Below are positions 15,318-30,905 of a DNA stretch of 60,472 bases, one piece after another. The notes under the pieces were generated by a model. That model was given only the letters and a program-made list of their open reading frames with translations, had not been told where the DNA came from and did no database searches. Numbering within the stretch: the stretch's first letter is position 1; the number at the start of each line of letters is the position of its first letter. The stretch is from Clostridia bacterium (GTDB lineage Bacteria > Bacillota > Clostridia > Christensenellales > UBA1242): positions 1-60,472 of the forward strand of contig JAFQFI010000008.1 in assembly GCA_017398655.1 (NCBI GenBank). Reading direction: 5' to 3'. Position numbers and translations under genes: made by a program.

Positions 15318-15367
15318 ATAAAAAAAATCTAAGCCAAACACTTTTTCTATGTGTTCAACTTAGATTT
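15318..15367 (-). terminator. rho-independent terminator after the Mrr-cat gene
   Basis: Imperfect hairpin AAATCTAAG..AAACAC / GTGTT..CTTAGATTT, followed by a T-run on the minus strand. Confidence 0.55.
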
Positions 15368-15405
15368 GTCTTGGTGGAGTTCAACTAAGCTAAGTTAAAC
15401 TCCAT

Positions 15406-16755
15406 TTATAGTTCTAAATCTTCTATTTTTTCAATCAAAACATCTCTATTCCACAGTTCGACTTTATTAACTTTAGCCAATTTTATTGCTGACGGAGTAA
15501 AATAATTATTTGTAACAACCATACACTTGTCAGCTTTATAGTATTTCATACCAGCAACAGCTTCCATTATTGCATGATTTCCAACTTTGTTATTATAACA
15601 TTTTGCTTGAATTGCGATTTTCAAATCATTTTTCTCAGCTATCACATCTATTCCTTGGTCATTACTTGCTTTGGTAATTTTCGTTTGATAACCCATATTT
15701 TTAAATAAATCAGATACGCAACTTTCAAACTCTTTACCAGACATTACATCTATATCAACAATAGAAACTGAATCTTTCTCTTTTTCTTCTTTTAACAAAT
15801 CGTTTAAATATTTTTCTGCATGTATTTGATTTTCGATTAAATCTAATTTTTCTTTATAAATTTCACTTGCTATATCCATATTTTCATTTTTATAAATTTC
15901 TTTAGAAAATAAAATAAAAGTAATTTCTTCAATTAACAAATTTTCTCTTCTTAATTTTTTTATTATATTTTTTTCATTTTCTTCATTTATTAAAAATTCA
16001 TATTTTTTACAAAAATTGTTTATATAATTATTTTTAATTTCATTATAAAATCTTTCATTTAAAAGTAAGAAAAAGGCATCTTCTGTATTTTTATCTCCTT
16101 CAATAACACCTTGTGTTACTAAGGCATCATAAAATTGACGCAATTCCCTACATTCAAATCCACCCTTATCAAATTGATTAGCACTAAAATGTTGTTTTTT
16201 TAAAATAAATCGAGACTTAATATCAAAAGATAAATTTATATCTTTTTCTGCTATAGTTACTATTTCCCAATATTCTAAAAATCGATTAAAAGTTTGTAAT
16301 GGAGGAATTTGAATATCTTCCTCTTCATTATTTTCATGTTTAGTTAATTCCTTAAATTTCTCTAACTCTTCTTTTAAAATCAATGGCTTGTAGTTATTTC
16401 CAAAATTATTAATCTTAACACTTGGCATTGCTATACTATCAACATTCTTGTATAAAAAAATATCTAAATTTTCTCTTTTAGAAAAAAATTTTGCTAAATA
16501 TTGATTTAATTTATCATTTTCACACAAATTAACATACTCTTCTAAAATATCCTTGAATGTGGATATATTTTTAATTAATTCTTCATTTTCAATCTTTAAT
16601 CCTTCTTTATTTAATTCTGGAGAATTAAATTTATCTATATCTTTTTTTTTCTTCTCATTTTTTAATCCCACTACAACATATATAATAGCGATTATAACCA
16701 AAGACACCAAAAAGATTACTGACCCAATTCCTGAAGCTCCCAATAAATTAACCAT
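15406..16755 (-). CDS. membrane-anchored protein with C-terminal Mrr-cat (PD-(D/E)xK) restriction-endonuclease domain
   Basis: 449 aa. N-terminal TM helix, a long K/E/N-rich middle region, and a C-terminal GKEFE...GIDVIAEK...IAIQAKCY block typical of the Mrr_cat fold. Confidence 0.7.
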   Translation of the reverse strand: MVNLLGASGIGSVIFLVSLVIIAIIYVVVGLKNEKKKKDIDKFNSPELNKEGLKIENEELIKNISTFKDILEEYVNLCENDKLNQYLAKFFSKRENLDIFLYKNVDSIAMPSVKINNFGNNYKPLILKEELEKFKELTKHENNEEEDIQIPPLQTFNRFLEYWEIVTIAEKDINLSFDIKSRFILKKQHFSANQFDKGGFECRELRQFYDALVTQGVIEGDKNTEDAFFLLLNERFYNEIKNNYINNFCKKYEFLINEENEKNIIKKLRRENLLIEEITFILFSKEIYKNENMDIASEIYKEKLDLIENQIHAEKYLNDLLKEEKEKDSVSIVDIDVMSGKEFESCVSDLFKNMGYQTKITKASNDQGIDVIAEKNDLKIAIQAKCYNNKVGNHAIMEAVAGMKYYKADKCMVVTNNYFTPSAIKLAKVNKVELWNRDVLIEKIEDLEL

Positions 16756-16890
16756 AAAAGTAAAACCTCTTTAATAAAAAGATAACATAGAATTAGATTT
16801 TTGTCATTTGATAGAATACTATTTTACTTTTGTAAATCAAAATATTGAAAAAATAGTTTCTATAAAACAATAAATAATTATACAAATAAT

Positions 16891-17964
16891 TTATTTTTTC
16901 TCTAAACCTTCTAATATTCTATGACACCTATCAAGTTGTTCTTTTACATATTTTGTTATTAAATTCGTAAACTTTTTTATTTTTGCAAAATAATTAGGAT
17001 ATGCTTTTTGCAAAGAAGCTATTGACTTTGCAGACACAAGAACAACATCTGTATTAATATCTTTATTTAATTCCAATTTTGCATAAGTTTTTATGGCTTT
17101 TTTTGTTGACTTTTCATCTTCATCAAAATATTTAATTTCCAAAGAAGGATTCATAGTTTTTAATTGAAGTAAATAGTACCCCGATTTATTATAATTTTTT
17201 TTACTATCAAATATTATTTTAACAGTAGCAAAAGTATATAATTTCTTAGTTAAACCATATTTTTTGTTTAAATTGAAAAACTCTCCAATTGTTTCTAAAT
17301 GTTTTTTTATGTCATCTATGGTCTTTATTTTTTTACACTCTTCTTCTTCAAATATCAATGAAGATAATCTAAAAAAATCAAGCCAAATTTTTTCACCTTG
17401 ATTAAATTTCAATCCGTTATTTGTGAACATACCTACAGATTCAACAGCTGTAGCCCATAAATGCTGCAGTCTTGTTCTTAGTTGAAGTTCTACAGAGATT
17501 TTGTCGTAGTTATTGTCTTTTATAAAATCATATATAAGGTGAATTCCTCTATATCCAGTGTCTTTATTCGGATTTTTTATATAATCTTTTTCTTTATTCA
17601 ATAAAAAATCTTCACTAATATTTAATATTGAGTCTCTAAAAGAATAAACTTCTTCTAAATTTGAAAAGATTACTCTACATCCTCCAAGATCTTGCATACT
17701 GCTTAATCTCATATTTGGATAACGCACCAGTTTATTTACTATGGTGTCTAACCTTTTTAATCTTTGTGCAAAAACAACTCCTTTACGAGTCCCTATAGCT
17801 CTTTTCAATTCTTTTGCCAATTTAATCATTGGATGAGCATGAACAGCTCTCCAGCGTTCCACAATTTTTAAATGTTCGTTGTTTTTTCTATCTAAAGAAT
17901 TCTTTGCTATTTCTTTTCCAATAATATCTATTTGATTTTTACTGTAAATAATATTTCTATCCAT
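16891..17964 (-). CDS. RelA/SpoT-domain nucleotide pyrophosphokinase, long single-gene form (toxSAS/CapRel-like)
   Basis: 357 aa. Synthetase motifs GGCRVIF, YRGIHLIY and ELQLRTRLQHLWA, no HD hydrolase domain, and a ~170-aa C-terminal extension of unknown fold. Confidence 0.7.
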   Translation of the reverse strand: MDRNIIYSKNQIDIIGKEIAKNSLDRKNNEHLKIVERWRAVHAHPMIKLAKELKRAIGTRKGVVFAQRLKRLDTIVNKLVRYPNMRLSSMQDLGGCRVIFSNLEEVYSFRDSILNISEDFLLNKEKDYIKNPNKDTGYRGIHLIYDFIKDNNYDKISVELQLRTRLQHLWATAVESVGMFTNNGLKFNQGEKIWLDFFRLSSLIFEEEECKKIKTIDDIKKHLETIGEFFNLNKKYGLTKKLYTFATVKIIFDSKKNYNKSGYYLLQLKTMNPSLEIKYFDEDEKSTKKAIKTYAKLELNKDINTDVVLVSAKSIASLQKAYPNYFAKIKKFTNLITKYVKEQLDRCHRILEGLEKK

Positions 17965-17992: not shown

Positions 17993-18022
17993 AAAAAAGC
18001 TTAAACCTTATTTGGTTTAAGC
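17993..18022 (-). terminator. terminator downstream of the displaced tRNA-Lys 3' end
   Basis: 9-bp hairpin GCTTAAACC-N6-GGTTTAAGC followed by a T-run on the minus strand. It sits where the native tRNA terminator would be expected. Confidence 0.6.
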
Positions 18023-18028
18023 AACTTG

Positions 18029-18077
18029 TGGTGGGCCACCGGGGACTCGAACCCCGGACCCACTGATTAAGAGTCAG
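18029..18077 (-). repeat. attL: displaced 3' portion of tRNA-Lys (49-bp direct repeat)
   Basis: Base-for-base identical to 32489-32537 (tggtgggccaccggggactcgaaccccggacccactgattaagagtcag). Confidence 0.9.
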
Positions 18078-18112
18078 AGAATAGTCCTTTATTTAAGCCA
18101 CTTATAGCGTTT

Positions 18113-18134
18113 AGTACCCAAATAAGTACCCAAA
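18113..18134 (+). repeat. tandem AGTACCCAAA arm-type sites (left arm)
   Basis: AGTACCCAAA occurs twice at a 12-bp period. The same pair occurs at 32384-32405. Confidence 0.6.
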
Positions 18135-18148
18135 AAAAGTCTTGCAGT

Positions 18149-18931
18149 TTATTTAAAAACCACAAGACCATTTTGTTGTACATGATATTGATTCTTCGAA
18201 TATATAGCTTTAATAAAGTCTTTTATATCAATACCTTTAAGGTGCCCTTCTTTATTTATTGTCACATTACAATTCTTTACATGAGCTCTCGACCAAGCCT
18301 TGCCTAAATTTATTGCATTTTCTTCAGAAATAATATCTTTTAGTAAATAAAAAACAGAATAACAATCATAAGACTTAACATTGTTCGGCATATTTAAAAT
18401 ATATTGCCTCGCGGATGAATCATGTGAAAGTAACGCAAAAATATCAGCGTCACCAATTCTATTTGCAATTGATATATTTAAAATTGTCATGATTTCCCCC
18501 ATGTTGTTTCCACTAGGTATATTTCTAACAATTTTATTCAACTGTATAATAAACATTTTTAACTTTGTTTCGTTCATACAAAGATTTTCTAATTGGCTAA
18601 AATAATTTTTATAAAAAGTATCACTTTTAGAAATTTCAATTGATATTTTACGAATCTCATCCAAAATAATATGTTTAATAGTTATATCATCAAAAAAATG
18701 CTTTAGGCCTTTTACAATTTCAAAATTGTCAACTATGCTTATTTTTTCTTCTTGATGATATTTATAAATTATTTTTAAAATATTAGGATTCTTTATTTCA
18801 TCAAGAACCTTTGAAACCATAATAAATTTATACGGAAGTTTTATAATTTCATCGAAAAATGTGGAAGAATTATTTTTTGCTTTTATTGTTTTATTTATAA
18901 AATCCGTATCTAAATATGCAACTTTACTCAA
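18149..18931 (-). CDS. PIN-like domain protein (putative nuclease effector)
   Basis: 260 aa with a TTG start overlapping the upstream stop by 8 nt. YLDTDFI, VLDEI and SHDSSA are spaced like PIN acidic residues. Tentative call. Confidence 0.4.
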   Translation of the reverse strand: MSKVAYLDTDFINKTIKAKNNSSTFFDEIIKLPYKFIMVSKVLDEIKNPNILKIIYKYHQEEKISIVDNFEIVKGLKHFFDDITIKHIILDEIRKISIEISKSDTFYKNYFSQLENLCMNETKLKMFIIQLNKIVRNIPSGNNMGEIMTILNISIANRIGDADIFALLSHDSSARQYILNMPNNVKSYDCYSVFYLLKDIISEENAINLGKAWSRAHVKNCNVTINKEGHLKGIDIKDFIKAIYSKNQYHVQQNGLVVFK

Positions 18932-19757
18932 CTGAATCTTTTTTAGTAATTTTTTTTAAAATTTCTTCCACTTTTAATTTTGTACTATTTGCTTTACTAT
19001 TACTGATAAACTGAAATTCCTCATTCTCACTTATGAGATAATCTAGATCATCCAAATCATAATAATTACTGCACTTTTGTTCCCATCTTTCAAAACGAAG
19101 TTTTATTATTACTTCATCTAATAATTTTATTGTCTCTTTGCCTATTCCTAAAAAAATTTTCAATTCTTTTTCACTGATTTTTTCTAATTCATATGCTCTT
19201 ATAACTGCAGTTTTATAAGGAACCATAAATGAATCCATTAATTTTTCAATATAAAAAACTTTTTCTTTTGATGTTTTTGGTTCTCTTTTACAAACAAGTT
19301 CAACCCTCTCTTTAGGCATTAGAAAACAAGAACTAAAAGCATTTGCCTTTTTATCGTTTATATTGCACTCAACTTCATTTGGATTATCCTTAAGTACATC
19401 TATTAAATTGTCATCCGTAGAATCTTCATGATTTTCTAGGAAATCAATAAAATGATAGAACTCATGAGCTAATGCTACATTTTGTTTGTTCATTGGAAAT
19501 TCTGAATTTATAACAATGAAAAATATTCCAGATATTTTATAAAACATACCCCATACTTGATCATCGTTAAAAGGAAGATATAATATTTTTAAACAAACAT
19601 TCTTTCTTTCTGCATATTCCTTTATAAATAATTTAAGATTATAAGCAATAGGTGTTAATTCTGAAATATTATAAAGAATCATGTTAGCTTTTTTTTCAAT
19701 ATCTCTAAATAAACTTTTATCAGAATAAAACAAACAATCTTTGATTTTAATAGACAT
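18924..19757 (-). CDS. ImmA/IrrE-family (M78, COG2856) zinc metallopeptidase
   Basis: 277 aa with the HExxH motif ALAHEFYHF. Its ATG directly abuts the stop of the upstream XRE gene, and the SD AAGGAGG lies inside that gene. Confidence 0.7.
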   Translation of the reverse strand: MSIKIKDCLFYSDKSLFRDIEKKANMILYNISELTPIAYNLKLFIKEYAERKNVCLKILYLPFNDDQVWGMFYKISGIFFIVINSEFPMNKQNVALAHEFYHFIDFLENHEDSTDDNLIDVLKDNPNEVECNINDKKANAFSSCFLMPKERVELVCKREPKTSKEKVFYIEKLMDSFMVPYKTAVIRAYELEKISEKELKIFLGIGKETIKLLDEVIIKLRFERWEQKCSNYYDLDDLDYLISENEEFQFISNSKANSTKLKVEEILKKITKKDSVE

Positions 19758-20108
19758 TTATGCCTCCTTATTATCATTTAAGTATTGTTGTTCAACAATA
19801 ATATCTGATAACTCAAAAATCAATTCAAAAGTTTTATTTGTCTCTTTTTTTGTAATCTCTCCCATAAGTTGAGCAGAAACTTTTTCTTTTAAAACTTTTC
19901 TTTGTCTTGTCAAATCTTCTATTTTACATGAAAAAAAATTAGCAATCTTTGCAAATTCGCTTGCTAATAAATTTCTCTTTCCTGCTAAAATTTTATTTAC
20001 TGTTTGTCTTGGCAAATCTAAAAACCTTCCTAGATCTGATTGTTTCTTCTTTTGTTTATTAAGTAAATCTAAAATATTTTGAGCAACCATTAAATCAAAA
20101 TTTTCCAT
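19758..20108 (-). CDS. XRE-family helix-turn-helix regulator
   Basis: 116 aa. QSDLGRFLDLPRQTVNKILAGKR is an HTH_3-type motif. Strong SD (AAAGGAGGG). Confidence 0.8.
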   Translation of the reverse strand: MENFDLMVAQNILDLLNKQKKKQSDLGRFLDLPRQTVNKILAGKRNLLASEFAKIANFFSCKIEDLTRQRKVLKEKVSAQLMGEITKKETNKTFELIFELSDIIVEQQYLNDNKEA

Positions 20109-20131
20109 AATTACTCACCCTCCTTTGGTAT

Positions 20132-20159
20132 TTTATATTAATTATTATGTCCTTGTCAA
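20132..20159 (-). promoter_or_regulatory. putative promoter of the XRE-ImmA-PIN operon
   Basis: TTGACA, 16-nt spacer, TATAAA on the minus strand just upstream of the SD. Confidence 0.4.
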
Positions 20160-20281
20160 TATTAAATATGCAAAATGTAACTAAATTAGTGACAAATGTA
20201 CATAAAAATTTCTTATTTAGAAGACATTTTTTAGTAAAAAAATTTTAATATAATCTAATAATTACTTCAATCTTTAGTGAC

Positions 20282-20320
20282 AAAAAAAATAAATCCAAAG
20301 ATTTTTTGGATTTATTTTTA
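20282..20320. terminator. bidirectional terminator downstream of the kinase gene
   Basis: Hairpin AATAAATCCAAA-N6-TTTGGATTTATT with A- and T-runs on either side. Confidence 0.65.
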
Positions 20321-20476
20321 AATATTTTCTTTGATTAAATCTCTATTTAATCTAAATATTAGATAACAAAATCAATTATAAAATTACATCAATTATAGAA
20401 AGAATTAAAAATCAGATAAAGTCTCTTATTAAGTCACTTATAAAGTTCAGTACAAAAATTTTAAAATTGTGTTTCA

Positions 20477-21610
20477 TTAAAAAGGCAAATCTTCATCTAT
20501 TTTAACTTTTACTTTAGACAATTTTGCTTTTATACTTTTTATTACAATTTCTTGAAAATGCCTATCTTTTCTTTCAAACCAATTTAAAAAATCTTTAACC
20601 AATGCTGTTTCTATTCTTATGCCATTTGAATATGCATAATTATTTTTCACAAAAATCGATATTAGACTGGAGTTTTCTATTAAAACATTCTCCAAACAAT
20701 TTTCTTCTAATAAATTCTCTAAACCGTTTATTATTTCATCAACATTATCGTTAATCTTTTGTTCTGAAGAATGGTGATCTAAAGCCAAAATCATGCTAGA
20801 TGAAAAATTTAAATAAATTTCTTTGTCTTTTTCTGTTATATCTAATCTTGTTAACTCTTTATGGTTTATTTTATTTAAAATATCTTCAAAAGAAGCAAAC
20901 CTTTTACTAGGATCAGTTTCCAACATCTTATTTAAAATTGTTTTATACTCAAAATTGTTTAAACTATTTTTTTTCAAAAGTCTACTAAACAATTCTGCAA
21001 GACAAAACATATCTGTTTTTGACGTGTATTTCCCTACATTTATTTCAGACGGTATTTTTTCCATTCCTCTTCTATCTATAACTTTATTTAAGCTATCTTT
21101 AGACATTGATGATTCAGAGAAATCTTTTCCCAAACCAAAATCTATTATTTTTACAACGCCATTTTTGTCAATCATAATATTATTTGGTCTAATATCTCTA
21201 TGAATTATGTTGTTTTTTTCTAAACAATTAAAGGCGTTAATTAATTGTATAAAAATTGAATTCGCATCAATTTCAATATCTTTTTTTGATAGATACTTGT
21301 CAATAGTTTCTCCGTCAATGTATTCCATTAATATAAACCCAGCATTGTATTCATCATATAAATAATAATTATAAATTCTCACTATGTTTGGATTATTAAG
21401 TTTGTACATTATTTTTATTTCTTTTTTAAACATATCATAAAAATATTTTATATTTACACCTTCTTGAGGAAGATATTTTTTACATACAAAAAGTTCTTCT
21501 AGAGAATTATCCCTTAGTAAAACTGTTTGCCCACAAGAACCTTTACCTAATTTTGCATTAACCATTGTATAACTTTTTGTCTTTATAAAATTAATTATTT
21601 CGTTTTCCAT
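20477..21610 (-). CDS. Hanks-type Ser/Thr protein kinase with unknown C-terminal domain
   Basis: 377 aa. Has LGKGSCGQ (G-loop), VCKKY, HRDIRPNN and IIDFGLGK motifs, followed by ~125 aa of unknown function ending in DEDLPF. Confidence 0.8.
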   Translation of the reverse strand: MENEIINFIKTKSYTMVNAKLGKGSCGQTVLLRDNSLEELFVCKKYLPQEGVNIKYFYDMFKKEIKIMYKLNNPNIVRIYNYYLYDEYNAGFILMEYIDGETIDKYLSKKDIEIDANSIFIQLINAFNCLEKNNIIHRDIRPNNIMIDKNGVVKIIDFGLGKDFSESSMSKDSLNKVIDRRGMEKIPSEINVGKYTSKTDMFCLAELFSRLLKKNSLNNFEYKTILNKMLETDPSKRFASFEDILNKINHKELTRLDITEKDKEIYLNFSSSMILALDHHSSEQKINDNVDEIINGLENLLEENCLENVLIENSSLISIFVKNNYAYSNGIRIETALVKDFLNWFERKDRHFQEIVIKSIKAKLSKVKVKIDEDLPF

Positions 21611-21640
21611 AACTTCTCCTTAATTTCACCATATCACAAT

Positions 21641-21680
21641 AAAAAAAGAGACTCAAGTATTTTTTTAAGTCTCTTTTTTT
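21641..21680. terminator. bidirectional terminator between the replication-like gene and the kinase gene
   Basis: Hairpin AAGAGACT...AGTCTCTT flanked by A- and T-runs. Confidence 0.6.
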
Positions 21681-22512
21681 ACAAATCTATTTCATCTAAA
21701 TTATCAAAAAGCGATTCTAACTCTTCAGTTGTATAGTTCCTGGAGATAAAAGCTTTGCGTTCTTCTTTTTGGTTTGGTTGTTTATAATCATCATAGTATC
21801 CAGTTATAATTTTATGGTAGTTGTCCATTAAGAAATCAAAATCAATTCTTGGATTGTTCTGAAGAAATAAACTTTTATCCAAAGCTGCAAGAAGAGAATC
21901 ACATTTAAAACCTACAGGAAGTAGTGTTAATCTATCCACTTTAAATCTTGGATATTTTTCGAATAAAGGAACAAGTCTCTCATCTATACTACAATTTATA
22001 TTACTACTATAATTATTATCTTTTTGAGTGTCTATTTCTATATTATATATACTACTAATATTATTATTTTTAGTATTTATATTATAATATGTTAACCAAC
22101 TTGGACATTTTTGACCAAGTTCACTTGCCAACTTGGACATTTTTGACCAAGTTAGAAGTAAAAAATATTTTTTCACTCCAACTGTTTCACTTTGCTTTTT
22201 AGATAGAACGTGGAGAGATTTTTTTGTAAGACAGATATTTATACCTGCAAAAAGATTTTGTTTCTTAAGATAACCGGCATTTACAAGCTTTGAAATTAAA
22301 CGTTTTAATTGTTTAACTTCAATGTTTAAAATTGGAAGTGCTTCAAGAACTTCTCTATAATTAAACGTTTTAAAAAGAGAAACTTCTTGGCCAGAAACAA
22401 ACTCTTCAGATATTATTGACTTGGAGAAATAAAAAAGCAGCAATAGTTCGTTTGCTGACAATTTATCTTTTAAAATTATTCTTTGTTGATAATCAAAAAC
22501 GTAATCCCACAT
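21679..22512 (-). CDS. winged-helix replication-initiator/replisome-organiser-like protein
   Basis: 277 aa. N-terminal wHTH-like segment, N/S/I-rich linker, acidic C-terminus, and internal DNA iterons. The functional call is an inference. Confidence 0.35.
   Translation of the reverse strand: MWDYVFDYQQRIILKDKLSANELLLLFYFSKSIISEEFVSGQEVSLFKTFNYREVLEALPILNIEVKQLKRLISKLVNAGYLKKQNLFAGINICLTKKSLHVLSKKQSETVGVKKYFLLLTWSKMSKLASELGQKCPSWLTYYNINTKNNNISSIYNIEIDTQKDNNYSSNINCSIDERLVPLFEKYPRFKVDRLTLLPVGFKCDSLLAALDKSLFLQNNPRIDFDFLMDNYHKIITGYYDDYKQPNQKEERKAFISRNYTTEELESLFDNLDEIDL
22096..22153. repeat. two identical 26-bp iterons, each with an internal dyad (candidate origin)
   Basis: ccaacttggacatttttgaccaagtt occurs at 22096-22121 and 22128-22153. 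Each copy contains the dyad AACTTGG-N10-CCAAGTT. The 32-bp period is not a multiple of 3. Confidence 0.7.
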
Positions 22513-22571
22513 AAAAAACCCTCTAATTTTTCGCGTAGTTAAATTAGGGTATTGATTTTAATACCCTTTTT

Positions 22572-22789
22572 TTATAAAAAAGTCGATTTTAAAGCATTTT
22601 CGAGTGCTACGCACACAAGAGCTGAACAGCGTTTTTCTAATCGGATTTTCGATAATATATTTGCTCGTCCATACTCTTGCATACATATCGCACTACAGCA
22701 ACAGGTAGCCCCATTTTGACCCACAGGGGCTAAAGCCGATCCTGTGGGTAAATAAATCAAAATGGGGCATTAACAAAGTTGCTGTAGTG
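22572..22789 (-). other. GC-rich structured non-coding block (candidate ncRNA, packaging signal or single-strand origin)
   Basis: Nested perfect stems of 12, 12 and 8 bp span 22691-22789. More small hairpins lie at 22572-22690. The composition is clearly more GC-rich than the surroundings. Confidence 0.55.
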
Positions 22790-22946
22790 TATCCCTCGTT
22801 ACCAGTTTTTCTAATTCTGTTATCTTTCCCAAGGTTGCTTTCAATATTACCTGTTTGTTGATTTTGTCAGATTTGTAAATTCCTACTTTTACCAATCTGT
22901 CAACTTCTTTCCTGCAGACCTTTCTTTCTTGAGATATTTCAGCCAT
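22770..22946 (-). CDS. small hypothetical protein (58 aa)
   Basis: ATG with AGGAGA SD. Translates to MAEISQERKVCRKEVDRLVKVG... It is below the ORF-track length cutoff, and its 3' end runs into the 5' arm of the hairpin. Confidence 0.45.
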   Translation of the reverse strand: MAEISQERKVCRKEVDRLVKVGIYKSDKINKQVILKATLGKITELEKLVTRDTLQQLC

Positions 22947-22958
22947 ATTTTTCTCCTT

Positions 22959-23261
22959 TTATTTTAAAATTAAAGTGAAAATAATAAAAATAGCAGTTAT
23001 TGCTAAATATAAAAAAATAATGAGTTTTTGTAACATTACTAATAATATATTTTTAGTTCTTTTTGCTTTAGTTAACATAATAAGAGAAGTAATAAAGCCA
23101 ACTACTAAAGTAAATAAAGCGTATGGCAGTAAAAATATTGACCCTAAAACGTCACCAGTTTTAAATGGTAAAATATTAGTAATTGGCAAAATAATTCTGA
23201 CTGAAAACGCCAAGCAAACAACTTCTATTAAAAAACCAATTAAAGATAATATTTTTCTCAT
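22959..23261 (-). CDS. small multi-pass membrane protein
   Basis: 100 aa from the ATG at 23261, with an AAGGAGA SD. About 3-4 hydrophobic helices. Confidence 0.6.
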   Translation of the reverse strand: MRKILSLIGFLIEVVCLAFSVRIILPITNILPFKTGDVLGSIFLLPYALFTLVVGFITSLIMLTKAKRTKNILLVMLQKLIIFLYLAITAIFIIFTLILK

Positions 23262-23293
23262 CAATTCTCCTTAAATAATTTTATTTACAAATT

Positions 23294-24754
23294 TTAAGCC
23301 AATTTTTTGACCTTGTAAGCCCTGTTTATAATTTCTTGGTTAAATAGTTGTTTTATTTCATCTTCGCTTAAAACGGGTGTTTTAAAGGTCTCTACGCTGG
23401 CAGATTGATATTGACAAGCATATAAATTTCTAAAAGTTCGGTCATCATAAAAACAATTTAAGTTTGGTGGTAAAACAAAAGATTTTACACGAGAGCCAAT
23501 TTGACCTTTATTTCCAACTTCAAGGTTTCCATAATCTTCATACTTGAATTTTCTAAAACCAACTGAATTAACATAAGTTCTTAAATCGGATATAATTTTT
23601 ACTTTAGTGTCTGTAGGTTCATAATTTTGAATAAACTCTTCAAGCCAAGAAACAATCCAATCTAATAGATAAGGTTTTAAAACGTGTTTTTGTTCTATCA
23701 TTTTTTTATTTTCTGCTGTAACACGTCTTGCAGAAATTAAAGTAGCATTTCCGTCTTGTTCTGTAGAAACTAATCTAAAATCCTTATACTGTCTTGTAAA
23801 TCTAAACATGTGGTCTATCAATTGGATTTTATTATTAGAAAGTTCTGGTGGAAGCATTGAACCAATTTCGTCCAAGAAAGCAACGCCTTTATATAAAAGT
23901 TTACTTTTTTGTAGTAGGTGATCTGCTGTAAATTTACAAGCAGGTTTTCCGTCTTTAAAAATTGGAATGTTACTCCAGAAACAAGGAATGCAATCGTTTT
24001 CGCTATAAAACTCATAAGCTTCAACAACTTCTATTACATGTTTTATTTTGACTTCATCTCCGGTGTACTTCCTTTGATATTCGACAATTGGAAAACCTTT
24101 TTTATCAAGGCCGATAACTTTATGTTCCAAATGAGTTCCAGAATAAATCCTTATTATTTTATTTTCCAACTTCCAATATTCAAATTGAAGATTTTTCCAT
24201 AATTTATCTGCAATTTCAATTGAGTCGTATATACCTGAAGACGACTTTCCTGCTCCAGGTTCTCCCATTCTTAAAACAACGTATTTTGACATACTTAAGT
24301 TTTCAGAATGTGATATTACAGATAGTTCATAAAATTCGTTAGAAACAAAATATATAAGGGTGAAAAAAGTCGCAACTGCTAAAGGAATAAAAAGTATTAG
24401 TTTTTTAGCTGTAAATCCAAAAGATGAAACATAAAGAATATCTAAAAGCAAAACTATAATAAATTCAATCAAATAATGAAAACGTGCTAATTTTTGAAGA
24501 AAAGATTTTTTTACTTTAAAAACCAAAACTTTATCTATTAAGTTTTCATCGTCTTCCGGTTCTGGTTCATAAAATTTTGTTTGAGCTTCTTCTTTCTTTT
24601 TAAAATACTTTGCATAATCTCTCCAGTGCTGGAGGGCAAATAAATCTTCTTTTAAATGTTTATCTGCCAACTTCCAACGCTGTTTTGTTTTTTGATTACC
24701 TTTGTATTTTGAATATGTTAATAATTTAGGTTCTGAATAAGTTAATAACTCCAC
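23294..24754 (-). CDS. membrane-anchored P-loop NTPase, Zot-like
   Basis: Probable GTG start at 24754 after GAGG. Two TM helices are followed by Walker A GEPGAGKSS, Walker B AFLDEIG and FRFTRQYKDFRLVSTEQD, resembling the Zot/pI family pattern. Confidence 0.55.
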   Translation of the reverse strand: MELLTYSEPKLLTYSKYKGNQKTKQRWKLADKHLKEDLFALQHWRDYAKYFKKKEEAQTKFYEPEPEDDENLIDKVLVFKVKKSFLQKLARFHYLIEFIIVLLLDILYVSSFGFTAKKLILFIPLAVATFFTLIYFVSNEFYELSVISHSENLSMSKYVVLRMGEPGAGKSSSGIYDSIEIADKLWKNLQFEYWKLENKIIRIYSGTHLEHKVIGLDKKGFPIVEYQRKYTGDEVKIKHVIEVVEAYEFYSENDCIPCFWSNIPIFKDGKPACKFTADHLLQKSKLLYKGVAFLDEIGSMLPPELSNNKIQLIDHMFRFTRQYKDFRLVSTEQDGNATLISARRVTAENKKMIEQKHVLKPYLLDWIVSWLEEFIQNYEPTDTKVKIISDLRTYVNSVGFRKFKYEDYGNLEVGNKGQIGSRVKSFVLPPNLNCFYDDRTFRNLYACQYQSASVETFKTPVLSEDEIKQLFNQEIINRAYKVKKLA

Positions 24755-24755
24755 A

Positions 24756-27062
24756 TTAAACCTCAAATTCAATAGAATCAATTGTTAATGATGTCACTTT
24801 TCCATCAGTAAAACCTACAGGATTTTCTTCACCAGAAGCGTAAACTTTATTTATTTTTTCATACGATTTTACATAGATTTCTAAAGAATTAGTATCTAAA
24901 TCAATTTTTGCAGAAAAATATAGTGGGAAATAATAATAAGTAGAATCATTATACTGTTCGTTAAAAACTCCCATATAAGCAAAACTTTTAGCTAATAAAG
25001 GAACTGTAACTAATTCATCTAATTTATAAAGACCACTTTCTTCATCAAAAGTTAAATTTAAATCATAATCAACTGATTTATTTACACTATAACTATTTAT
25101 TTTTGTATAAGAAGAACCAAAAGTTTTCACATAATTTACCGTTTCAAGATAATAAGAACTAATATTTATAGCAATATTTTTAAAATCAGTTATAGGTTGC
25201 TCCAAAGAAGATAAATCAACTGTGAAAGTTGTATATGTGGAATAATTACCAGTTCCACTAAAAGCAGTTCCATATGTTAAAGTTTTTGATGCAATTTTAT
25301 AAATTGGATAAAAATCAGTATCTGAAGTTATTGCTATTGTTGAAATATCTATTACTGTTTCTTGATCTGTTGACCAACCAACAAAAACATATCCTGTTCT
25401 ATCACTTAAGATAGGTGTAACAGAGTATTTGTCTGTTTCAATAAGTTGAGTTTCTAAAATTACTAATTCTTCATTTTCATCATAGCCATAGAAATTAACA
25501 ACGTTTAATCTTTCAAATTCAGCAATATATGTTGTATGGCTTGTAATTGCTTCAGATAACACGTCTGTTAATATTCCATTCTTTAACCAGCCATTAAATT
25601 TATATCCGTCCTTTATTGGCTCTGCAGGAAGTTCTGGATAATGATTTAATTCAATTATTTGAGAATTATGTATATCTTCACTATCCTCATCAAGTTTGAA
25701 TATAACGTCAAAACTATAAGTTATATTTGCAACTAAAACAGTATCTGCAACAATTGGTGTTGTTGTTATATCAAATACAACATCATTTGAGTACCAACCA
25801 TTAAATTTCCTGTAAACACTACTTTCAACTTCAATTTCTGAAGCGTACTCATTATTTCTTACAATTTGAGTGTCTTGAGTAGTATCTTCATAAATAAAAG
25901 TTACTGTGTGAAGTTTTGTAAATACAGCTACAAAAATTGTATCTTGTGTTATTTGAATTTCTGTAGGATTTACTTTATCAACACCATTCAAAGACCAATA
26001 GTCAAACTCATATCCGTCTTTTACTGGCTCTGCAGGAAGTTCCGGATAATAATTAAGTTCTATAATTTGAGAACTATGTAAATCTTCATCTACTTTAAAC
26101 TTAACATCATATCTGGTTGTTATATCAGCATAAAATGTTGTATTTGCAGAAAGTGGATAAGAACTTAATTCAACTTCTTGTTTTTCTCCGTCAACTTCAA
26201 CGTACCAATAATTGAAAGTTACATATTCAGTTGATTCTGGATTAACAAGTGCAGGTGTAGTTCCTTTATTAATTACTTGAATGTTATAAACGCTATTATT
26301 AAAATAGAACGTTGCAACAACTTGATTTTCGTTTTCTAAATTTTTGATATATTGTTCATAATATTCAATTGATTTTTTTAAGCTTTCAACTTCGTTTTTA
26401 AGTGAAGTTAAAGCTGCAGAATTATTTTCTGAAGCAGTTGTCATTTCAGAAATTTGTTTATTTAAAGTTTCAATTTGTAAATTCATATTTACAATTGTTT
26501 GAGTGTTTAAATCATTGGTTGATTGTAAAGAAGCATTTACTGTTTGAAGATTTGAAATTTGTTTCTGAAGTAGCTCTATTTCTTCAGATTTATCTTCATC
26601 ACTTGCTTTAAGTTTTGTAACTTCATTTTTTAAATTTGAAATAGTTACTTTGTTTTCTGCAATTATTTTTTCATTTTCAGCATTAATTGTTTCTAAAGAA
26701 AGTACTCTATTTTGATAAGTATTTCTTTCACTTGTTAACGTTGAAATTTTAGTTTGATATTCCCAATTATTGTCTGTTAATACTTTAATTTGAGATTGAG
26801 AATCTGCTATTTCTTTTTCATAAGTTGCTACAAGTTTTTTATAGTAACTTTCATTATTCTTGGCGTCAGAATAACCGTCATTGTAAGCATCAGAAGTTAT
26901 TTCATCTACTTGTGTTTGAGTATAAATAGAACTTCCTTTTATAAGAGCAAATAACCCCTCTTTATTATTAAAAGTCCACCAAACACCAAAAACTAACGCT
27001 CCCACAATCAGTACACAAACCAAGGAAAAAGCTATGCTTCTTGCGTTCTTATTTTTTTCCAT
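24756..27062 (-). CDS. N-terminally anchored surface protein: coiled coil plus repeated P.P.K.GY.F.GW (Listeria-Bacteroides-repeat-like) domains
   Basis: ATG at 27062 after GAGGAGG. TM helix, ~200 aa of heptad-like sequence, then repeats such as YPELPAEPVKDGYEFDYW and YPELPAEPIKDGYKFNGW. Confidence 0.6.
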   Translation of the reverse strand: MEKNKNARSIAFSLVCVLIVGALVFGVWWTFNNKEGLFALIKGSSIYTQTQVDEITSDAYNDGYSDAKNNESYYKKLVATYEKEIADSQSQIKVLTDNNWEYQTKISTLTSERNTYQNRVLSLETINAENEKIIAENKVTISNLKNEVTKLKASDEDKSEEIELLQKQISNLQTVNASLQSTNDLNTQTIVNMNLQIETLNKQISEMTTASENNSAALTSLKNEVESLKKSIEYYEQYIKNLENENQVVATFYFNNSVYNIQVINKGTTPALVNPESTEYVTFNYWYVEVDGEKQEVELSSYPLSANTTFYADITTRYDVKFKVDEDLHSSQIIELNYYPELPAEPVKDGYEFDYWSLNGVDKVNPTEIQITQDTIFVAVFTKLHTVTFIYEDTTQDTQIVRNNEYASEIEVESSVYRKFNGWYSNDVVFDITTTPIVADTVLVANITYSFDVIFKLDEDSEDIHNSQIIELNHYPELPAEPIKDGYKFNGWLKNGILTDVLSEAITSHTTYIAEFERLNVVNFYGYDENEELVILETQLIETDKYSVTPILSDRTGYVFVGWSTDQETVIDISTIAITSDTDFYPIYKIASKTLTYGTAFSGTGNYSTYTTFTVDLSSLEQPITDFKNIAINISSYYLETVNYVKTFGSSYTKINSYSVNKSVDYDLNLTFDEESGLYKLDELVTVPLLAKSFAYMGVFNEQYNDSTYYYFPLYFSAKIDLDTNSLEIYVKSYEKINKVYASGEENPVGFTDGKVTSLTIDSIEFEV

Positions 27063-29037
27063 AAACGTTCCTCCTCTTGTTACCTTTTTTGTAAAAACCA
27101 AATATCCAAAGAAGAAGTTGAATTGGTAAAGAAACAATCCAAACTACGCCTTTAAATAAAAGCTTTAAAATTGGTTTTAAAAATGGAATTGCTAATAAGC
27201 AAATAAGAATTACTATTGCAATAAGTATCCATGTGAAAGTATTTAAACTTTTATCTTCAAGAGTTACATCTACATCAGAGATAATATCAAAAGGACTTGA
27301 AACAACAGGAATTGTATAAAACATAGCGTCATTTGTGAGAGTTAATTGAATAATATCAAAATCTAAAAAAACATTCTCTTGTGCAGAACTCATTGCATAA
27401 TCAGTTGCCGGAAAGTAAAAATCTCCTAAACGTTTTTCATAAGAAACTTGCAAATTTGAATAAGAAAGATAATCTGTTTCTGCAAATCTAAATAAGAAAA
27501 CTGTTTCTTCATTTTCAGTTGCATTATTAAAATATTCTCTAAAATCATCTACATCATTTTTTGCAATAAGTAAATTTTCAGAAACTTTTGAATCACTTCC
27601 GATAACTTCATCTGAAGTAACGCTTTTGATTGGAGCAATTGTTTTATCTTCAATAGTATTAACAGTAAAGAATGTTTCCCACCATGAAGCACTTTCATTT
27701 AATTTTGTAATCTCGATATTATCTTCCACTGTAATATCAATTTTGTTATATCCCATTTTTCTATCTGAAGTTGCTGTAGATGTATTGTAGTATTTAGCAT
27801 TGAACTCTTCTTCTGATAAAAATAAATCTGCAGATATTTCTCTACCATTACAGTCAATAATTCCATTTTTAAAAATGCTATAGTTATAAATATAATTACT
27901 TAAATCTTCACTCTTTAACGTGTAATCGCCAACTATATCTTCAGCTAAAAAAAGATAATTTATTTCATTTAAAGTGTTAAGAGCATAATCAGAATCTGCA
28001 TTGTAAATAAATGAATCCTCTAACCATTCTTTATATGGCGTATAAAGAGGTGATCCAACGGTAGTCCAAAAACCTCCCGGTCTTAAAACAGCACAATCTG
28101 GAACGTCTCCGGAGTTGTGAGCAATATTTACTCCAATATAATCTTTTAAACTATTATAAACTTTGCTTGATGATGTTATAAAAATATCTTTTGTTGCATA
28201 TTCCCAAAATTCTGCCTTAACAGAATAAATACTTCCATATTTTTCAATAATTGAATTTGGCACACTAAAGTAAACACTGTTTATTTGAGAACCTTTAAAA
28301 CGTTCTTCCATTCCGTCAGAGTCAAATCTGTAATAAGAGTGCTTAACGTCTAACGTTAGAGTTTCAATTGCATTAGCTTCACATTTTAAAGTAGATTCTT
28401 CACTATCTCCACCAAAACCTTTAGCATATCCAGTAAAAGAATATGAAGTTGAAACGTTATACTCTGTAGCATTTTCTCTATCAGCAACGTTTAATTCAAT
28501 ACCAGAGATATGATAAGTTCTTTTTAAAGAATTAAGTTTTGTTAAAAAGATTGAAGTATCAGATATTTTGAATTTATAAAAAAGTTCAGCATAATCTCCT
28601 TGAGAACGGTCGCAATATTCCAGGTTAAATTTTTCATAATTTATTGGATTATTTTCTTCATCAAACTCTACAGCAATTTGAACTTTATTTGTTTTTATAG
28701 TATCAATTTCAATACCTTGAGGATTGTATATGTAAAGATATAAATTGTAATTATCTTGCATATCCAGTTTGTATGAATAGCAATATTCAACAAAGTTAAT
28801 TACCACCATTTTATCTTCAGATTGGTCAAACGGATATTTTAAAATATCAAAGTTTTCACAAGACAATAAATCTTCCATTACTCTTGTTTGGTCTAAATTT
28901 TTAACTTCATCTGAAGAAGTTGAAGCATAAACGTTTACAGAACTTATTGTTGGTATTAAAAAAGAAATGGCAAAAATAATTGCCATTAACAATAAAAAAA
29001 TTTTATTCTTCTTTTCTTTCTTTTTCATCATAAGCAT
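27049..29037 (-). CDS. large secreted protein with signal peptide and C-terminal TM anchor (spike/adsorption-like)
   Basis: 662 aa. N-terminal signal-like segment ending ...VYAS, and a C-terminal hydrophobic region with a basic tail. Confidence 0.55.
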   Translation of the reverse strand: MLMMKKKEKKNKIFLLLMAIIFAISFLIPTISSVNVYASTSSDEVKNLDQTRVMEDLLSCENFDILKYPFDQSEDKMVVINFVEYCYSYKLDMQDNYNLYLYIYNPQGIEIDTIKTNKVQIAVEFDEENNPINYEKFNLEYCDRSQGDYAELFYKFKISDTSIFLTKLNSLKRTYHISGIELNVADRENATEYNVSTSYSFTGYAKGFGGDSEESTLKCEANAIETLTLDVKHSYYRFDSDGMEERFKGSQINSVYFSVPNSIIEKYGSIYSVKAEFWEYATKDIFITSSSKVYNSLKDYIGVNIAHNSGDVPDCAVLRPGGFWTTVGSPLYTPYKEWLEDSFIYNADSDYALNTLNEINYLFLAEDIVGDYTLKSEDLSNYIYNYSIFKNGIIDCNGREISADLFLSEEEFNAKYYNTSTATSDRKMGYNKIDITVEDNIEITKLNESASWWETFFTVNTIEDKTIAPIKSVTSDEVIGSDSKVSENLLIAKNDVDDFREYFNNATENEETVFLFRFAETDYLSYSNLQVSYEKRLGDFYFPATDYAMSSAQENVFLDFDIIQLTLTNDAMFYTIPVVSSPFDIISDVDVTLEDKSLNTFTWILIAIVILICLLAIPFLKPILKLLFKGVVWIVSLPIQLLLWIFGFYKKGNKRRNVYGKK

Positions 29038-29131
29038 TTGCTCCTAATAAAATGAATCTTGCTAATTCATTTGAATTTGGCAATCTACCATATTTTTTAT
29101 AAAATTCATTTCTAAAATCTTGCTTTGACAT
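29003..29131 (-). CDS. possible 42-aa protein
   Basis: ATG 8 nt after GGAG (ggagaaaacaaa atg). Translates to MSKQDFRNEFYKKYGRLPNSNELARF... Overlaps the start of the 662-aa gene. Confidence 0.3.
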   Translation of the reverse strand: MSKQDFRNEFYKKYGRLPNSNELARFILLGANAYDEKERKEE

Positions 29132-29145
29132 TTTGTTTTCTCCTT

Positions 29146-29466
29146 TTAAAAATTAAAAATATTTCCTACTTTGGTAATAGTAAATTTTTGAAAAATACCT
29201 TTTATTTCATGTAAGGTATAGAAGATTTTTGCTTGGTCTTCTGTTTGAAAACCATAAGCTAATTTATCCTGGTTAAAAACAACTCTAAATTGTTTTGAAA
29301 TAATATCATTTTCGATTATTACTAAATCATTTGTAAAAAGCTCTTGTCCGTTGTAATCATACAGGTTTATAAACTCTGACAACGTTTCAGAAGTGTTTTC
29401 AAACAACTTGATTAAAATCCACTTTTTCTCTTGTTTAGAATAATCTTTTATTTTAATTTCCCTCAT
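29146..29466 (-). CDS. hypothetical protein (106 aa)
   Basis: Internal ATG at 29466 preceded by GGAG. Overlaps the upstream gene by 14 nt. Confidence 0.5.
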   Translation of the reverse strand: MREIKIKDYSKQEKKWILIKLFENTSETLSEFINLYDYNGQELFTNDLVIIENDIISKQFRVVFNQDKLAYGFQTEDQAKIFYTLHEIKGIFQKFTITKVGNIFNF

Positions 29467-29776
29467 AAACTTTCTCCAATTCTTCAGAGTTAGATGAAGT
29501 TGTTTTTTTATTTTCATCTATGTTTTGAGTAAGAATTGTTAAATAAACAACCATTCCGTTTTTCTCAAAATCTTTTTTAAGATGTAAAGCTTTTTCTAAC
29601 GTTAACCCTTTATACTCAATTTTTATTTCATCATCTAAATTATTAAAAACGTTAACGGAAATTTTATCTTTCTTGTTTATTTTTCTAATATCTAAAAATG
29701 TTGGAAAAGTTAATTCAAAATAAATTGTTAAAAATAAAACAAAGAAAGCTAATAAAAATGTTAAAAATACTTGCAT
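29453..29776 (-). CDS. hypothetical protein with N-terminal TM helix
   Basis: 107 aa with a hydrophobic N-terminus (MQVFLTFLLAFFVLFL). Confidence 0.5.
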   Translation of the reverse strand: MQVFLTFLLAFFVLFLTIYFELTFPTFLDIRKINKKDKISVNVFNNLDDEIKIEYKGLTLEKALHLKKDFEKNGMVVYLTILTQNIDENKKTTSSNSEELEKVYEGN

Positions 29777-29790
29777 TATTAACCTACCCC

Positions 29791-30078
29791 TTATTCAAAC
29801 ATGTAAATAATTTTGATTAGTAAAGTTACATAAACCAGAATTAAAGCACAGTTTAATAAAGTCATGATTGTTGATTTTGCCTTGACCGATTCTATTAAAC
29901 TTTTTAAAGCTGAAATAAAACCAATAACTTTTAAAACGATAAGTAAAATAATATTTAAAACTTTTAAGAAAACATCAGAATTGTTTATTTCTCCACCAAC
30001 CAAGAAAGCAAAAATAAGACAGATAAATGAAACAAAAATCAATATTTCTTTAGTTCCTGACTTTTGATAATTAGCCAT
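29791..30078 (-). CDS. small three-TM membrane protein
   Basis: 95 aa, strong SD (AAGGAGG), three hydrophobic helices. Confidence 0.55.
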   Translation of the reverse strand: MANYQKSGTKEILIFVSFICLIFAFLVGGEINNSDVFLKVLNIILLIVLKVIGFISALKSLIESVKAKSTIMTLLNCALILVYVTLLIKIIYMFE

Positions 30079-30109
30079 AAATTAACCTCCTTTTTCATAA
30101 GTTTCAAAT

Positions 30110-30361
30110 TTATACAAATTTTTTGCCAACACCATTTTTATCCAGGACAATAAATTTTCCTAAAGGACATTTTGGAGAGCAGAAATGATAATCAATCATC
30201 TCGCAGGACTTATCACAAAACCTATTTGGAAAATCAGAATCATCATCTAAAAATTTGCATTTAGAACAAATTGCAATAACCTTTTTAAATTCAGAATCTA
30301 ACTTGTTAAAGTTAAAACTTCCTGTTGGTGAATTGTTTGCATTTCCATAAATTATCTCCAT
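30110..30361 (-). CDS. small Cys-rich (putative zinc-binding) protein
   Basis: 83 aa from the ATG at 30361 after GGAGGAA. Cysteines are arranged as CxxC...CxxxC...CxxxC. Confidence 0.5.
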   Translation of the reverse strand: MEIIYGNANNSPTGSFNFNKLDSEFKKVIAICSKCKFLDDDSDFPNRFCDKSCEMIDYHFCSPKCPLGKFIVLDKNGVGKKFV

Positions 30362-30386
30362 AACTTCCTCCAAATTTTTTTTATTT

Positions 30387-30545
30387 ATCCAGAGAAAACG
30401 GTAAAGAGAGCAAAGTTCTCTCTGGATATATTTACGAGTTTTTCGTAAATATTACTTTAATATTTACAATATTTTCGTAAATAGTCAAGTGTTTTTACGA
30501 AAATGTTGAAATTATTTTAATTTTTTTTACAATATTCTCGAATAA
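30387..30545. promoter_or_regulatory. divergent switch region: dyad hairpin plus four phased operator-like repeats
   Basis: TTTAC(G/A)A half-sites start at 30431, 30463, 30494 and 30526. O1 is a perfect 8-bp-arm palindrome (ATTTACGA-N5-TCGTAAAT). A 9+3-bp dyad lies at 30387-30427. Confidence 0.6.
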
Positions 30546-30557
30546 GGGGGCAATACA

Positions 30558-30905
30558 ATGAATTTAAAAGAAATAAGAGAAAGAAAAAAAATAAAACAAG
30601 TAGAAGTTGCAAAAGCACTAAACTTACCAAATTCAACATATAACGGGTATGAAAAAGAAACGAGTCAACCTAATATCGAAACTATTATTAAATTAGCCAA
30701 ATATTTTAATGTTTCCACAGATGAACTTCTTGGAGTTTCAAAAACAAAAAATATCAATCTAACTGAAAAAAATGCTTTATTAGATGTTATAGATTCTCTT
30801 ACTGAAATTGAATGTCATAAACTTAAAATTTTTGCTGAAGGTTTAATTTCTAATAGAATTGAAAAAACACCAGCATTCAAAGTTTTAAAAGATGATAGAG
30901 AGTAA
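30558..30905 (+). CDS. XRE-family HTH regulator (repressor candidate 1)
   Basis: 115 aa. HTH_3 motif QVEVAKALNLPNSTYNGYEKE. Confidence 0.8.
   Translation: MNLKEIRERKKIKQVEVAKALNLPNSTYNGYEKETSQPNIETIIKLAKYFNVSTDELLGVSKTKNINLTEKNALLDVIDSLTEIECHKLKIFAEGLISNRIEKTPAFKVLKDDRE

Follow-up and report, generated by a model that had tools for sequence, protein, structure and literature searches.

We have studied two neighbouring genes carried by an uncultured, low-GC gut Clostridia bacterium, in a stretch of 60,472 nucleotides (GenBank assembly GCA_017398655.1, contig JAFQFI010000008.1) that we refer to as the window. The first (Rel; 16891-17964, minus strand) encodes a RelA/SpoT protein of 357 amino acids that by sequence and structural model is a fused toxic small alarmone synthetase (toxSAS) of the CapRel type. 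The second (Mrr; 15406-16755, minus strand) encodes a protein of 449 amino acids, predicted to be a stand-alone membrane-anchored nuclease with an Mrr_cat domain. The initial annotation of this DNA had put the pair forward as a candidate two-gene defence system. We conclude that the locus probably consists of two conflict modules, each of a single gene and independent of the other, that lie stacked in a hypervariable slot, and not of a co-evolving system. The assignment of Rel draws on its open reading frame (ORF), Pfam, PADLOC, the PDB, and an AlphaFold2 (AF2) model compared by Foldseek; that of Mrr draws on its ORF, Pfam, a family alignment and an AF2 model.

Co-conservation of the two genes was examined from both sides. 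On the Rel side, an Mrr_cat hidden Markov model (HMM) built from the Mrr family was run over 166 loci with flanks of up to 6 kb, of which 80 came from species genomes, 80 from viral contigs and 6 from metagenome places. On the Mrr side, 83 loci (540 kb) were scanned with a CapRel-family HMM at E <= 0.01. An Mrr_cat ORF was present within 6 kb of a CapRel homologue at just one of the 166 loci (L022), where it was located 3.8 kb upstream and was not adjacent. Near the Mrr homologues there was no CapRel-type ORF at any of the 83 loci. The proposed two-gene defence system thus failed the test of co-conservation, and no recurrent partner was found.

The closest relatives of each protein have other neighbours. 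The relative most similar to Rel (P0002, 55% identity) lies beside a methyltransferase, while another (P0008, 50%) is preceded by housekeeping genes and followed, at the end of its contig, by a short uncharacterised ORF. A third (P0012, 47-48%) is found in a DarT/Macro/Schlafen-helicase island. Two Mrr relatives whose similarity extends over most of the protein (P0155, with 100% coverage, and P0123, with 87%) sit among unrelated genes. Clustering of the neighbours within 3 kb gave no partner family for either gene. Those neighbours that did recur beside Rel homologues either were part of type I restriction-modification (R-M) operons or came from a single group of related phage contigs, and for the Mrr homologues no neighbour family occurred in more than 3 of 82 loci. 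Nor was there a recurrent small neighbour that might be a separate antitoxin across the 166 CapRel-homologue loci.

Two of these genomic settings are of interest in themselves. CapRel homologues are located inside type I R-M operons in 14-16 loci, with putative HsdM and HsdS genes upstream and HsdR downstream, as judged by sequence. In addition, some 25 related large IMG/VR contigs (~80-160 kb) carry a CapRel homologue followed by the same downstream gene of 132 amino acids.

Within the window the order of transcription is Rel first and Mrr second; the initial annotation had numbered the genes by their plus-strand coordinates. They are separated by a spacer of 135 nt (16756-16890, minus strand), in which promoter-like hexamers occur and the ATG of Mrr is preceded by an AGAGG ribosome-binding site. 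A terminator-like hairpin was sought in this spacer and none was found, its fold being no better than those of shuffled sequences (z = −0.16). Coordinates, spacing and fold all agree with the earlier description of two same-strand genes whose 135-nt gap lacks a terminator. A promoter scan of the spacer was uninformative, giving 16 promoter-like matches where 22.8 are expected by chance in such AT-rich DNA. The spacer contains no separate antitoxin ORF. Its only ORFs are two of 30 and 21 amino acids that start with TTG, and the absence of a small antitoxin gene beside Rel had been correctly observed. Downstream of Mrr there is a double hairpin with a U-run (15321-15404, minus strand; ΔG = −35.5 kcal/mol, z = −7.0), which serves as terminator for the transcript of Mrr (or of Rel-Mrr) and forms the right border of the variable slot. 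Upstream of Rel there is a terminator hairpin (17999-18022, minus strand), 3′ of a displaced tRNA-Lys 3′ end, which insulates the Rel gene from an integrated island. The two genes may share one transcript.

The slot occupied by the pair is bordered on one side by the original 3′ end of tRNA-Lys, now displaced, with its terminator, and on the other by a core radical-SAM gene, identified by NCBIfam as MnmL/YtqA (TIGR01212) and involved in tRNA modification. The pair is therefore outside the island, which extends over 18029-32537 and has at its two ends perfect direct repeats of 49 nt from the 3′ part of tRNA-Lys(ctt). The intact tRNA-Lys(ctt) gene, the target of integration, was located by ARAGORN at 32489-32564 (minus strand). 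The distal attachment (att) repeat, at 18029-18077 (minus strand), is a 49-nt copy of the 3′ part of this gene that is 100% identical to 32489-32537, and it forms the left border of the slot. A tyrosine integrase is encoded at 31416-32375 (plus strand; Pfam Phage_integrase). The description of the pair as tRNA-adjacent consequently requires some modification. The pair does border the original 3′ end and terminator of tRNA-Lys, but the intact tRNA gene is 14.5 kb away and what adjoins the pair is the 49-nt att repeat. We also looked for another copy of the 49-nt repeat, complete or degenerate, which would have made the Rel-Mrr segment a remnant of an older element, and found none.

The same gap was then compared in relatives, located through orthologues of the radical-SAM protein with 89-98% identity; the closest of these orthologues carry the title 'MAG: Clostridia bacterium'. 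L257 and L258 (radical-SAM 89% identical) have no island. In these an intact tRNA-Lys and its terminator are followed by 2.7 kb of unrelated cargo, comprising a protein of 444 amino acids (called as separate ORFs of 96 and 292 amino acids in L257) and a SHOCT membrane protein; L257 has a hairpin and TTTTTTATTTTGA at the equivalent position after its intact tRNA-Lys. L255 and L256 (94%) carry a TrkA_C gene and a gene of 189 amino acids, and L260 (95%) a TrkA_C gene and one of 537 amino acids. The closest strain, L254, with 98% identity in both the radical-SAM protein and the core DNA, carries a protein of 408 amino acids with an N-terminal transmembrane helix and an HNH domain, together with other small genes, and its homology with the window resumes at 15379, in the hairpin after the Mrr gene. 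No CapRel-type or Mrr_cat ORF is present in the gap of L254, L255/L256, L257/L258 or L260. Five different cargos among relatives whose radical-SAM proteins are 89-98% identical bear out the earlier suggestion that this position is an accretion hot spot. Rel and Mrr in exactly this arrangement were seen only in assemblies of one strain (99.9% identity).

Two further features of the hot spot were observed. Copies of the double hairpin found at 15321-15404 are present in L254 (5323-5350 and 6880-6955), L255 (6022-6097) and L256 (785-860). They are found where different cargo genes begin or end, flanking the HNH gene in L254 and lying farther upstream in L255 and L256. The recurring double hairpin may mark the boundaries of cassettes or act as a recombination anchor. 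The transmembrane-HNH protein of L254 (5626-6852, with the HNH domain at residues 187-237) is encoded directly upstream of the radical-SAM gene, so that a putative membrane-anchored nuclease of a different fold occupies the position of the transmembrane-Mrr_cat gene.

We turn to the individual proteins. In Rel, Pfam recognises a RelA_SpoT domain at residues 67-173 (E = 8e-18) and no other domain. There is no HD hydrolase, and the core motifs listed in the initial annotation (GGCRVIF, YRGIHLIY and ELQLRTRLQHLWA) are all present in the translation. A search of PDB sequences with phmmer matched CapRel-SJ46 (7ZTB and 9ERV; E = 3e-42) in a single alignment of residues 5-340 of Rel with 13-370. When phage genomes were searched by tblastn, Rel matched the SJ46 gene itself, with 32% identity over 94% of the query. 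The PADLOC candidate PDC-S33 matches Rel end to end (residues 4-342 against 5-343 of 349; E = 2.5e-101). The family is a large one, with more than 6,500 homologues among the scored candidates, 408 matches in species-representative genomes of bacteria and archaea, and 175 matches on viral contigs.

The structure of Rel was modelled with AF2 from 38 homologues, giving a mean predicted local distance difference test (pLDDT) score of 87 and a predicted TM-score (pTM) of 0.86. Foldseek places 7ZTB and 9ERV at the top of its list of structures similar to the model, over ~358 columns (E = 1e-21, TM-score 0.65). The root-mean-square deviation is 10 Å, as would be expected if the model were closed and the crystal open. 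The toxSYNTH catalytic core lies at approximately residues 60-200 (17365-17787, minus strand) and includes R68, R97 and Y138 of the G-loop. The C-terminal region, approximately residues 245-357 (16894-17232, minus strand), aligns with residues ~270-370 of SJ46 and is homologous to the pseudo-zinc-finger domain (pseudo-ZFD), anchors and C-terminal helix of CapRel. In the model it forms three strands and a helix (strands at 249-252, 262-269, 274-280 and 305-312, and a helix at 284-300). Near its end is the YXXY autoinhibition motif Y322-P-N-Y325 (16990-17001, minus strand), aligned with Y352-P-N-Y355 of CapRel-SJ46.

The residues that are important in CapRel-SJ46 can be traced individually. A77, R79, R116 and Y155 correspond to A66, R68, R97 and Y138 of Rel, while V338, L339, A341, A351, Y352 and Y355 correspond to V308, L309, S311, A321, Y322 and Y325. 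The mapped residues are invariant in the alignment of 38 sequences except at the position of A341 (S311), and A321, Y322, N324, Y325 and F326 are invariant among these homologues. The roles of these residues, including the arginines R79 and R116 that contact the adenine of ATP, the G-loop tyrosine Y155 and the autoinhibitory YXXY, were established for CapRel-SJ46 (Zhang et al., 2022; PMC9712102). Conservation is uneven along the protein. Mean identity among homologues is 59% in toxSYNTH, falls to 30% in the region equivalent to the pseudo-ZFD (residues 201-300) and returns to 56% in the anchor and YXXY region; a variable specificity domain (the pseudo-ZFD) has also been reported for CapRel (PMC9712102). 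On the evidence of sequence and model, Rel is a fused CapRel-type toxin-antitoxin, a divergent new member of a known, widespread and stand-alone family.

Variation within the strain was also seen. In two other metagenome assemblies (L090 and L091) Rel has six A nucleotides in place of five at 17005-17009. The resulting frameshift leads to a product of 323 amino acids, ending in LQKSIS, that lacks A321-K357 and hence the YXXY motif. Both of these contigs stop at position 16929 of the window. This form could be a real allele, inactivating or activating, or a population variant.

In Mrr, Pfam finds the Mrr_cat domain at residues 336-442 (15430-15750, minus strand; E = 1.8e-31). This PD-(D/E)xK domain has invariant E344, D370, Q383 and K385, and a long block VGNHAIMEAVAG...LWDR is likewise invariant in the family. 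At the other end of the protein there is a predicted transmembrane helix at approximately residues 7-31 (16663-16737, minus strand), with a Kyte-Doolittle maximum of 3.2, which lies in a helix of residues 7-43 in the AF2 model. The hydrophobic segment is followed directly by KNEKKKK, and by the positive-inside rule the nuclease domain would be cytoplasmic. Residues 32-320 are 38% E, K and N. Pfam and hydropathy therefore agree with the layout originally given, of an N-terminal transmembrane helix, a K/E/N-rich stretch and a C-terminal Mrr_cat domain. The AF2 model (pLDDT 76) begins with a long helix, continues with an all-alpha middle, confident over residues 200-320, and includes the PD-(D/E)xK domain.

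Conservation in the Mrr family increases towards the C terminus. Mean identity is 15% in the N-terminal part, which varies in length, 21% in a helical middle of ~130 amino acids, and 63% in the nuclease. A hydrophobic segment N-terminal to the nuclease was found in 72 of 119 Mrr homologues (61%), against 1 of 119 CapRel homologues taken as a control. Among close homologues of Mrr, P0140 and P0149 have a TM2 domain in place of the transmembrane helix by Pfam annotation, and P0122-P0124 and P0126 have a long N-terminal extension in its place, that of P0126 being annotated as FtsK_SpoIIIE (PF01580). This suggests that the variable N termini are interchangeable modules for localisation or the handling of DNA.

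Similarity to known proteins is concentrated in the nuclease. A search of 1.84 billion representative proteins with residues 32-325 alone gave zero matches at E <= 0.001, and Foldseek found no structural match in the PDB for the first 320 residues, its neighbours (AF1548, MspJI, AspBHI and Hjc) being confined to the PD-(D/E)xK domain. NCBIfam returned nothing for Mrr, and the PDB sequence search nothing significant. The matches among PHROGs are to generic 'restriction endonuclease' families and those in PADLOC to PDC-S02, ZorD and LmuA, all of them covering the nuclease domain only. Membership of PDC-S02 or of Zorya ZorD was rejected, because only the Mrr-like C-terminal part aligns (182-306 of 334 and 920-1061 of 1071, respectively). 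Taken together, Mrr is predicted from its sequence to be an uncharacterised, stand-alone PD-(D/E)xK nuclease with a single-pass membrane anchor and an intact E-D-QxK site.

Three alternatives to this interpretation need to be weighed. Rel and Mrr might constitute one bicistronic abortive-infection system, in which the nuclease senses or executes with the toxSAS as backup, or in which one protein regulates the other. Several observations weigh in favour of this, and against two independent modules. The genes are on one strand with a 135-nt gap lacking a terminator, and terminators are present on both outer flanks, making co-transcription of Rel and Mrr plausible. Three independent assemblies show exactly the same arrangement. 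Both genes are missing together from L254, which is the sole comparison with a close strain, and a one-gene state was never seen at the site. The nearest homologues are distant, at 55% identity for Rel and 47% over 56% of the length for Mrr, and the comparative data consequently leave room for a lineage-specific partnership. There is also a precedent in PANGU type I, a two-gene toxSAS system other than a toxin-antitoxin pair (bioRxiv 10.64898/2026.04.06.716658). Nevertheless, the assemblies that share the arrangement are those of a single strain, ~99.9% identical, and do not amount to independent conservation. A shared strand, a missing terminator and joint presence or absence are as expected where two cassettes have come to lie together in a hot spot. 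Rel possesses its own cis-acting antitoxin and sensor with an intact YXXY motif, and CapRel has been found experimentally to be sufficient alone in E. coli (PMC9712102). With the absence of co-conservation and the different neighbours of the closest relatives, these points make a single bicistronic system highly unlikely.

The two remaining alternatives concern the proteins individually. Rel could in principle be a housekeeping small alarmone synthetase similar to RelQ or RelP, making (p)ppGpp for stress signalling, and its catalytic core does match the structures of RelP, RelQ and YjbM in the PDB search (E ~1e-9). This likeness is however limited to ~110-190 residues (Foldseek aligns the small alarmone synthetases with the model over ~180-200 columns only), where CapRel matches end to end. 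Rel scores 48 bits with the NCBIfam model for YjbM (NF053588), for which the cutoff is 320. The housekeeping enzymes are ~200-230 amino acids in length, against 357 for Rel, which has the C-terminal YXXY/antitoxin region. Moreover, the Rel gene is missing from a strain with a 98% identical core, and its family is frequent on viral contigs. The PDB search, NCBIfam score and Foldseek comparison led us to reject a housekeeping role, the chance of which we regard as negligible; sequence, fold, key residues and the YXXY motif concur in making Rel CapRel-like, as had been surmised. As for Mrr, it might be a Type IV restriction enzyme of the conventional kind, comparable to E. coli Mrr or MspJI, cytoplasmic and acting on modified DNA, its hydrophobic N terminus being incidental or the product of a mis-called start. 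In favour of this are the intact Mrr_cat domain and the presence of MspJI and AspBHI among the best structural matches. A public gene caller began the ORF at an internal GTG (P0121, 421 amino acids), dropping 16672-16755 and with it most of the helix. The longer form is favoured by the AGAGG ribosome-binding site before the upstream ATG, a start used by another caller in its 449-residue model. Pfam finds only the nuclease domain, and no Mrr_N winged helix, SRA-like or other DNA-reading domain. The frequency of N-terminal hydrophobic segments among the homologues, and the TM2 or FtsK-like N termini of others, are further points against an incidental helix. A conventional Type IV enzyme is on balance unlikely, although less so than a bicistronic system. 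We therefore retain the interpretation of Rel and Mrr as separate modules, the first a CapRel-type toxin-antitoxin and the second predicted to be a membrane-anchored nuclease.

A mechanism for Rel can be suggested from the work on CapRel-SJ46. In the uninfected cell the C-terminal domain would dock on the active site, with the YXXY motif plugging the adenine pocket. The enzyme would then be opened when a phage protein, such as the major capsid protein, bound to the variable pseudo-ZFD. The open form would pyrophosphorylate the 3′-CCA ends of tRNA, whereupon translation would stop and the infection would be aborted.

For Mrr we are guided solely by analogy with SNIPE, the middle of the protein having neither homologues nor a structural match. 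The membrane tether might keep the nuclease off the chromosome, and the substrate of the enzyme might be DNA present at the membrane, the likeliest being that injected by phages. We offer, quite tentatively, the idea that proteins with this transmembrane, helical and Mrr_cat organisation are widespread membrane-tethered PD-(D/E)xK nucleases that cut phage DNA at the site of injection in the manner of SNIPE, self and non-self being distinguished by location. If that were true, sister strains would be swapping membrane nucleases of unlike fold at the slot upstream of the radical-SAM gene, transmembrane-Mrr_cat in the window and transmembrane-HNH in L254. It is still more speculative to view the Mrr nuclease and the adjacent CapRel as a locally co-transcribed pair providing 'entry-stage plus late-stage' defence.

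The island beyond the slot has a number of other features. Besides the integrase it contains two adjacent helix-turn-helix (HTH) genes (30558-31220). Most of its cargo lacks a Pfam or PHROG match, and a PHROG search of the unannotated genes, made as a test for a prophage, gave no matches. An operon at 18149-20108 (minus strand) encodes an HTH protein (19758-20108), an M78/ImmA-like peptidase (18924-19757) and an overlapping protein of 260 amino acids (18149-18931). The HTH protein and peptidase match the PADLOC candidate PDC-M69A/B; the 260-residue protein has no match in any library and is of no known family. A Ser/Thr protein kinase is encoded at 20477-21610 (minus strand; Pfam Pkinase, E = 1e-30) and resembles the PD-T4-6, mad6 and MkoA kinases of PADLOC. 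Two large ORFs with an 89-nt overlap occupy 24756-29037 (minus strand), one of 793 amino acids with Listeria-Bacteroides repeats and the other of 662 amino acids with no matches. Approximately 4.4 kb of the island (21621-26035) is 92.5% identical in L254, where the ends of the island differ.

Some general points emerge. Adjacency, a shared strand and a missing terminator within a defence hot spot are no evidence for a multi-gene system, and here the comparative data from both sides reject one. Rel provides a divergent CapRel from the Clostridia, ~30% identical to that of SJ46, in which the mechanistic residues are kept, and could aid the study of trigger specificity in Gram-positive gut bacteria. 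Mrr draws attention to a large and unstudied family of Mrr_cat nucleases predicted to be anchored in the membrane.

The known system to which Rel may most directly be compared is CapRel-SJ46 (PMC9712102; 7ZTB and 9ERV). Both are encoded by a single ORF of ~360 amino acids, with a toxSYNTH domain carrying the equivalents of R79, R116 and Y155 and a pseudo-ZFD/anchor region carrying YPNY (Y352-Y355 in SJ46); the equivalents of A351, V338 and L339 are also kept in Rel. Both have a variable specificity domain and stand alone, their settings being defence islands, R-M operons and phages. Rel differs in being ~30-32% identical, in having S311 at the position of A341, and in being ~15 residues shorter, with deletions in loops of toxSYNTH and of the pseudo-ZFD. 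The CapRel of SJ46 comes from an enterobacterial prophage, whereas Rel is located in the chromosome of an uncultured Clostridia bacterium. PDC-S33, which resembles Rel in its end-to-end HMM match, is a bioinformatic label for a single-gene candidate, and a literature search on this name found no describing text. The PDC systems were derived from 'guilt by embedding' in R-M, BREX and DISARM operons (bioRxiv 10.1101/2024.01.29.577857), and the Rel homologues embedded in type I R-M operons are consistent with such an origin for PDC-S33.

PANGU type I (the nucleoid-associated protein NAP and the toxSAS GRel; bioRxiv 10.64898/2026.04.06.716658) is similar to the locus in that a toxSAS gene lies beside a second gene that is not an antitoxin. 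It differs in that the partner here is a transmembrane-Mrr_cat protein and not NAP, in that Rel is of the CapRel type with autoinhibition in cis and not a GRel with a DNA-mimic domain, and in that the Rel-Mrr pair is not co-conserved. A PANGU-like pairing of NAP and toxSAS was rejected from the Pfam domains of the Mrr partner and the homology of the C terminus of Rel with the CapRel antitoxin. With the Type IV enzymes E. coli Mrr and MspJI, the Mrr protein shares the Mrr_cat catalytic domain and its D...QxK site. Unlike them it has a predicted transmembrane helix and an all-alpha region of no known fold, and has no N-terminal domain for reading modified DNA.

In its overall layout the Mrr protein resembles SNIPE (PD-lambda-1), a stand-alone gene product with a membrane anchor, a poorly conserved middle, a C-terminal nuclease that is its best-conserved part, and variable N termini (PMC13190303). 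The Mrr protein likewise has a predicted single-pass N-terminal transmembrane helix, a weakly conserved middle and a conserved C-terminal nuclease, and stands alone. Again as in SNIPE, ~60-66% of family members have transmembrane segments, and the N-terminal regions are highly variable. The nucleases themselves are different, PD-(D/E)xK of the Mrr_cat type in one and GIY-YIG in the other, and the middle domain of SNIPE is DUF4041. Pfam finds neither DUF4041 nor GIY-YIG in the Mrr protein, PADLOC gives no match to PD-lambda-1, and there is no likeness of sequence or fold beyond the general layout. The relationship is thus put forward as an analogy of layout, without a claim of membership. The resemblance of both layout and conservation gradient to those of SNIPE suggests that nucleases localised to the membrane may be built on several folds.

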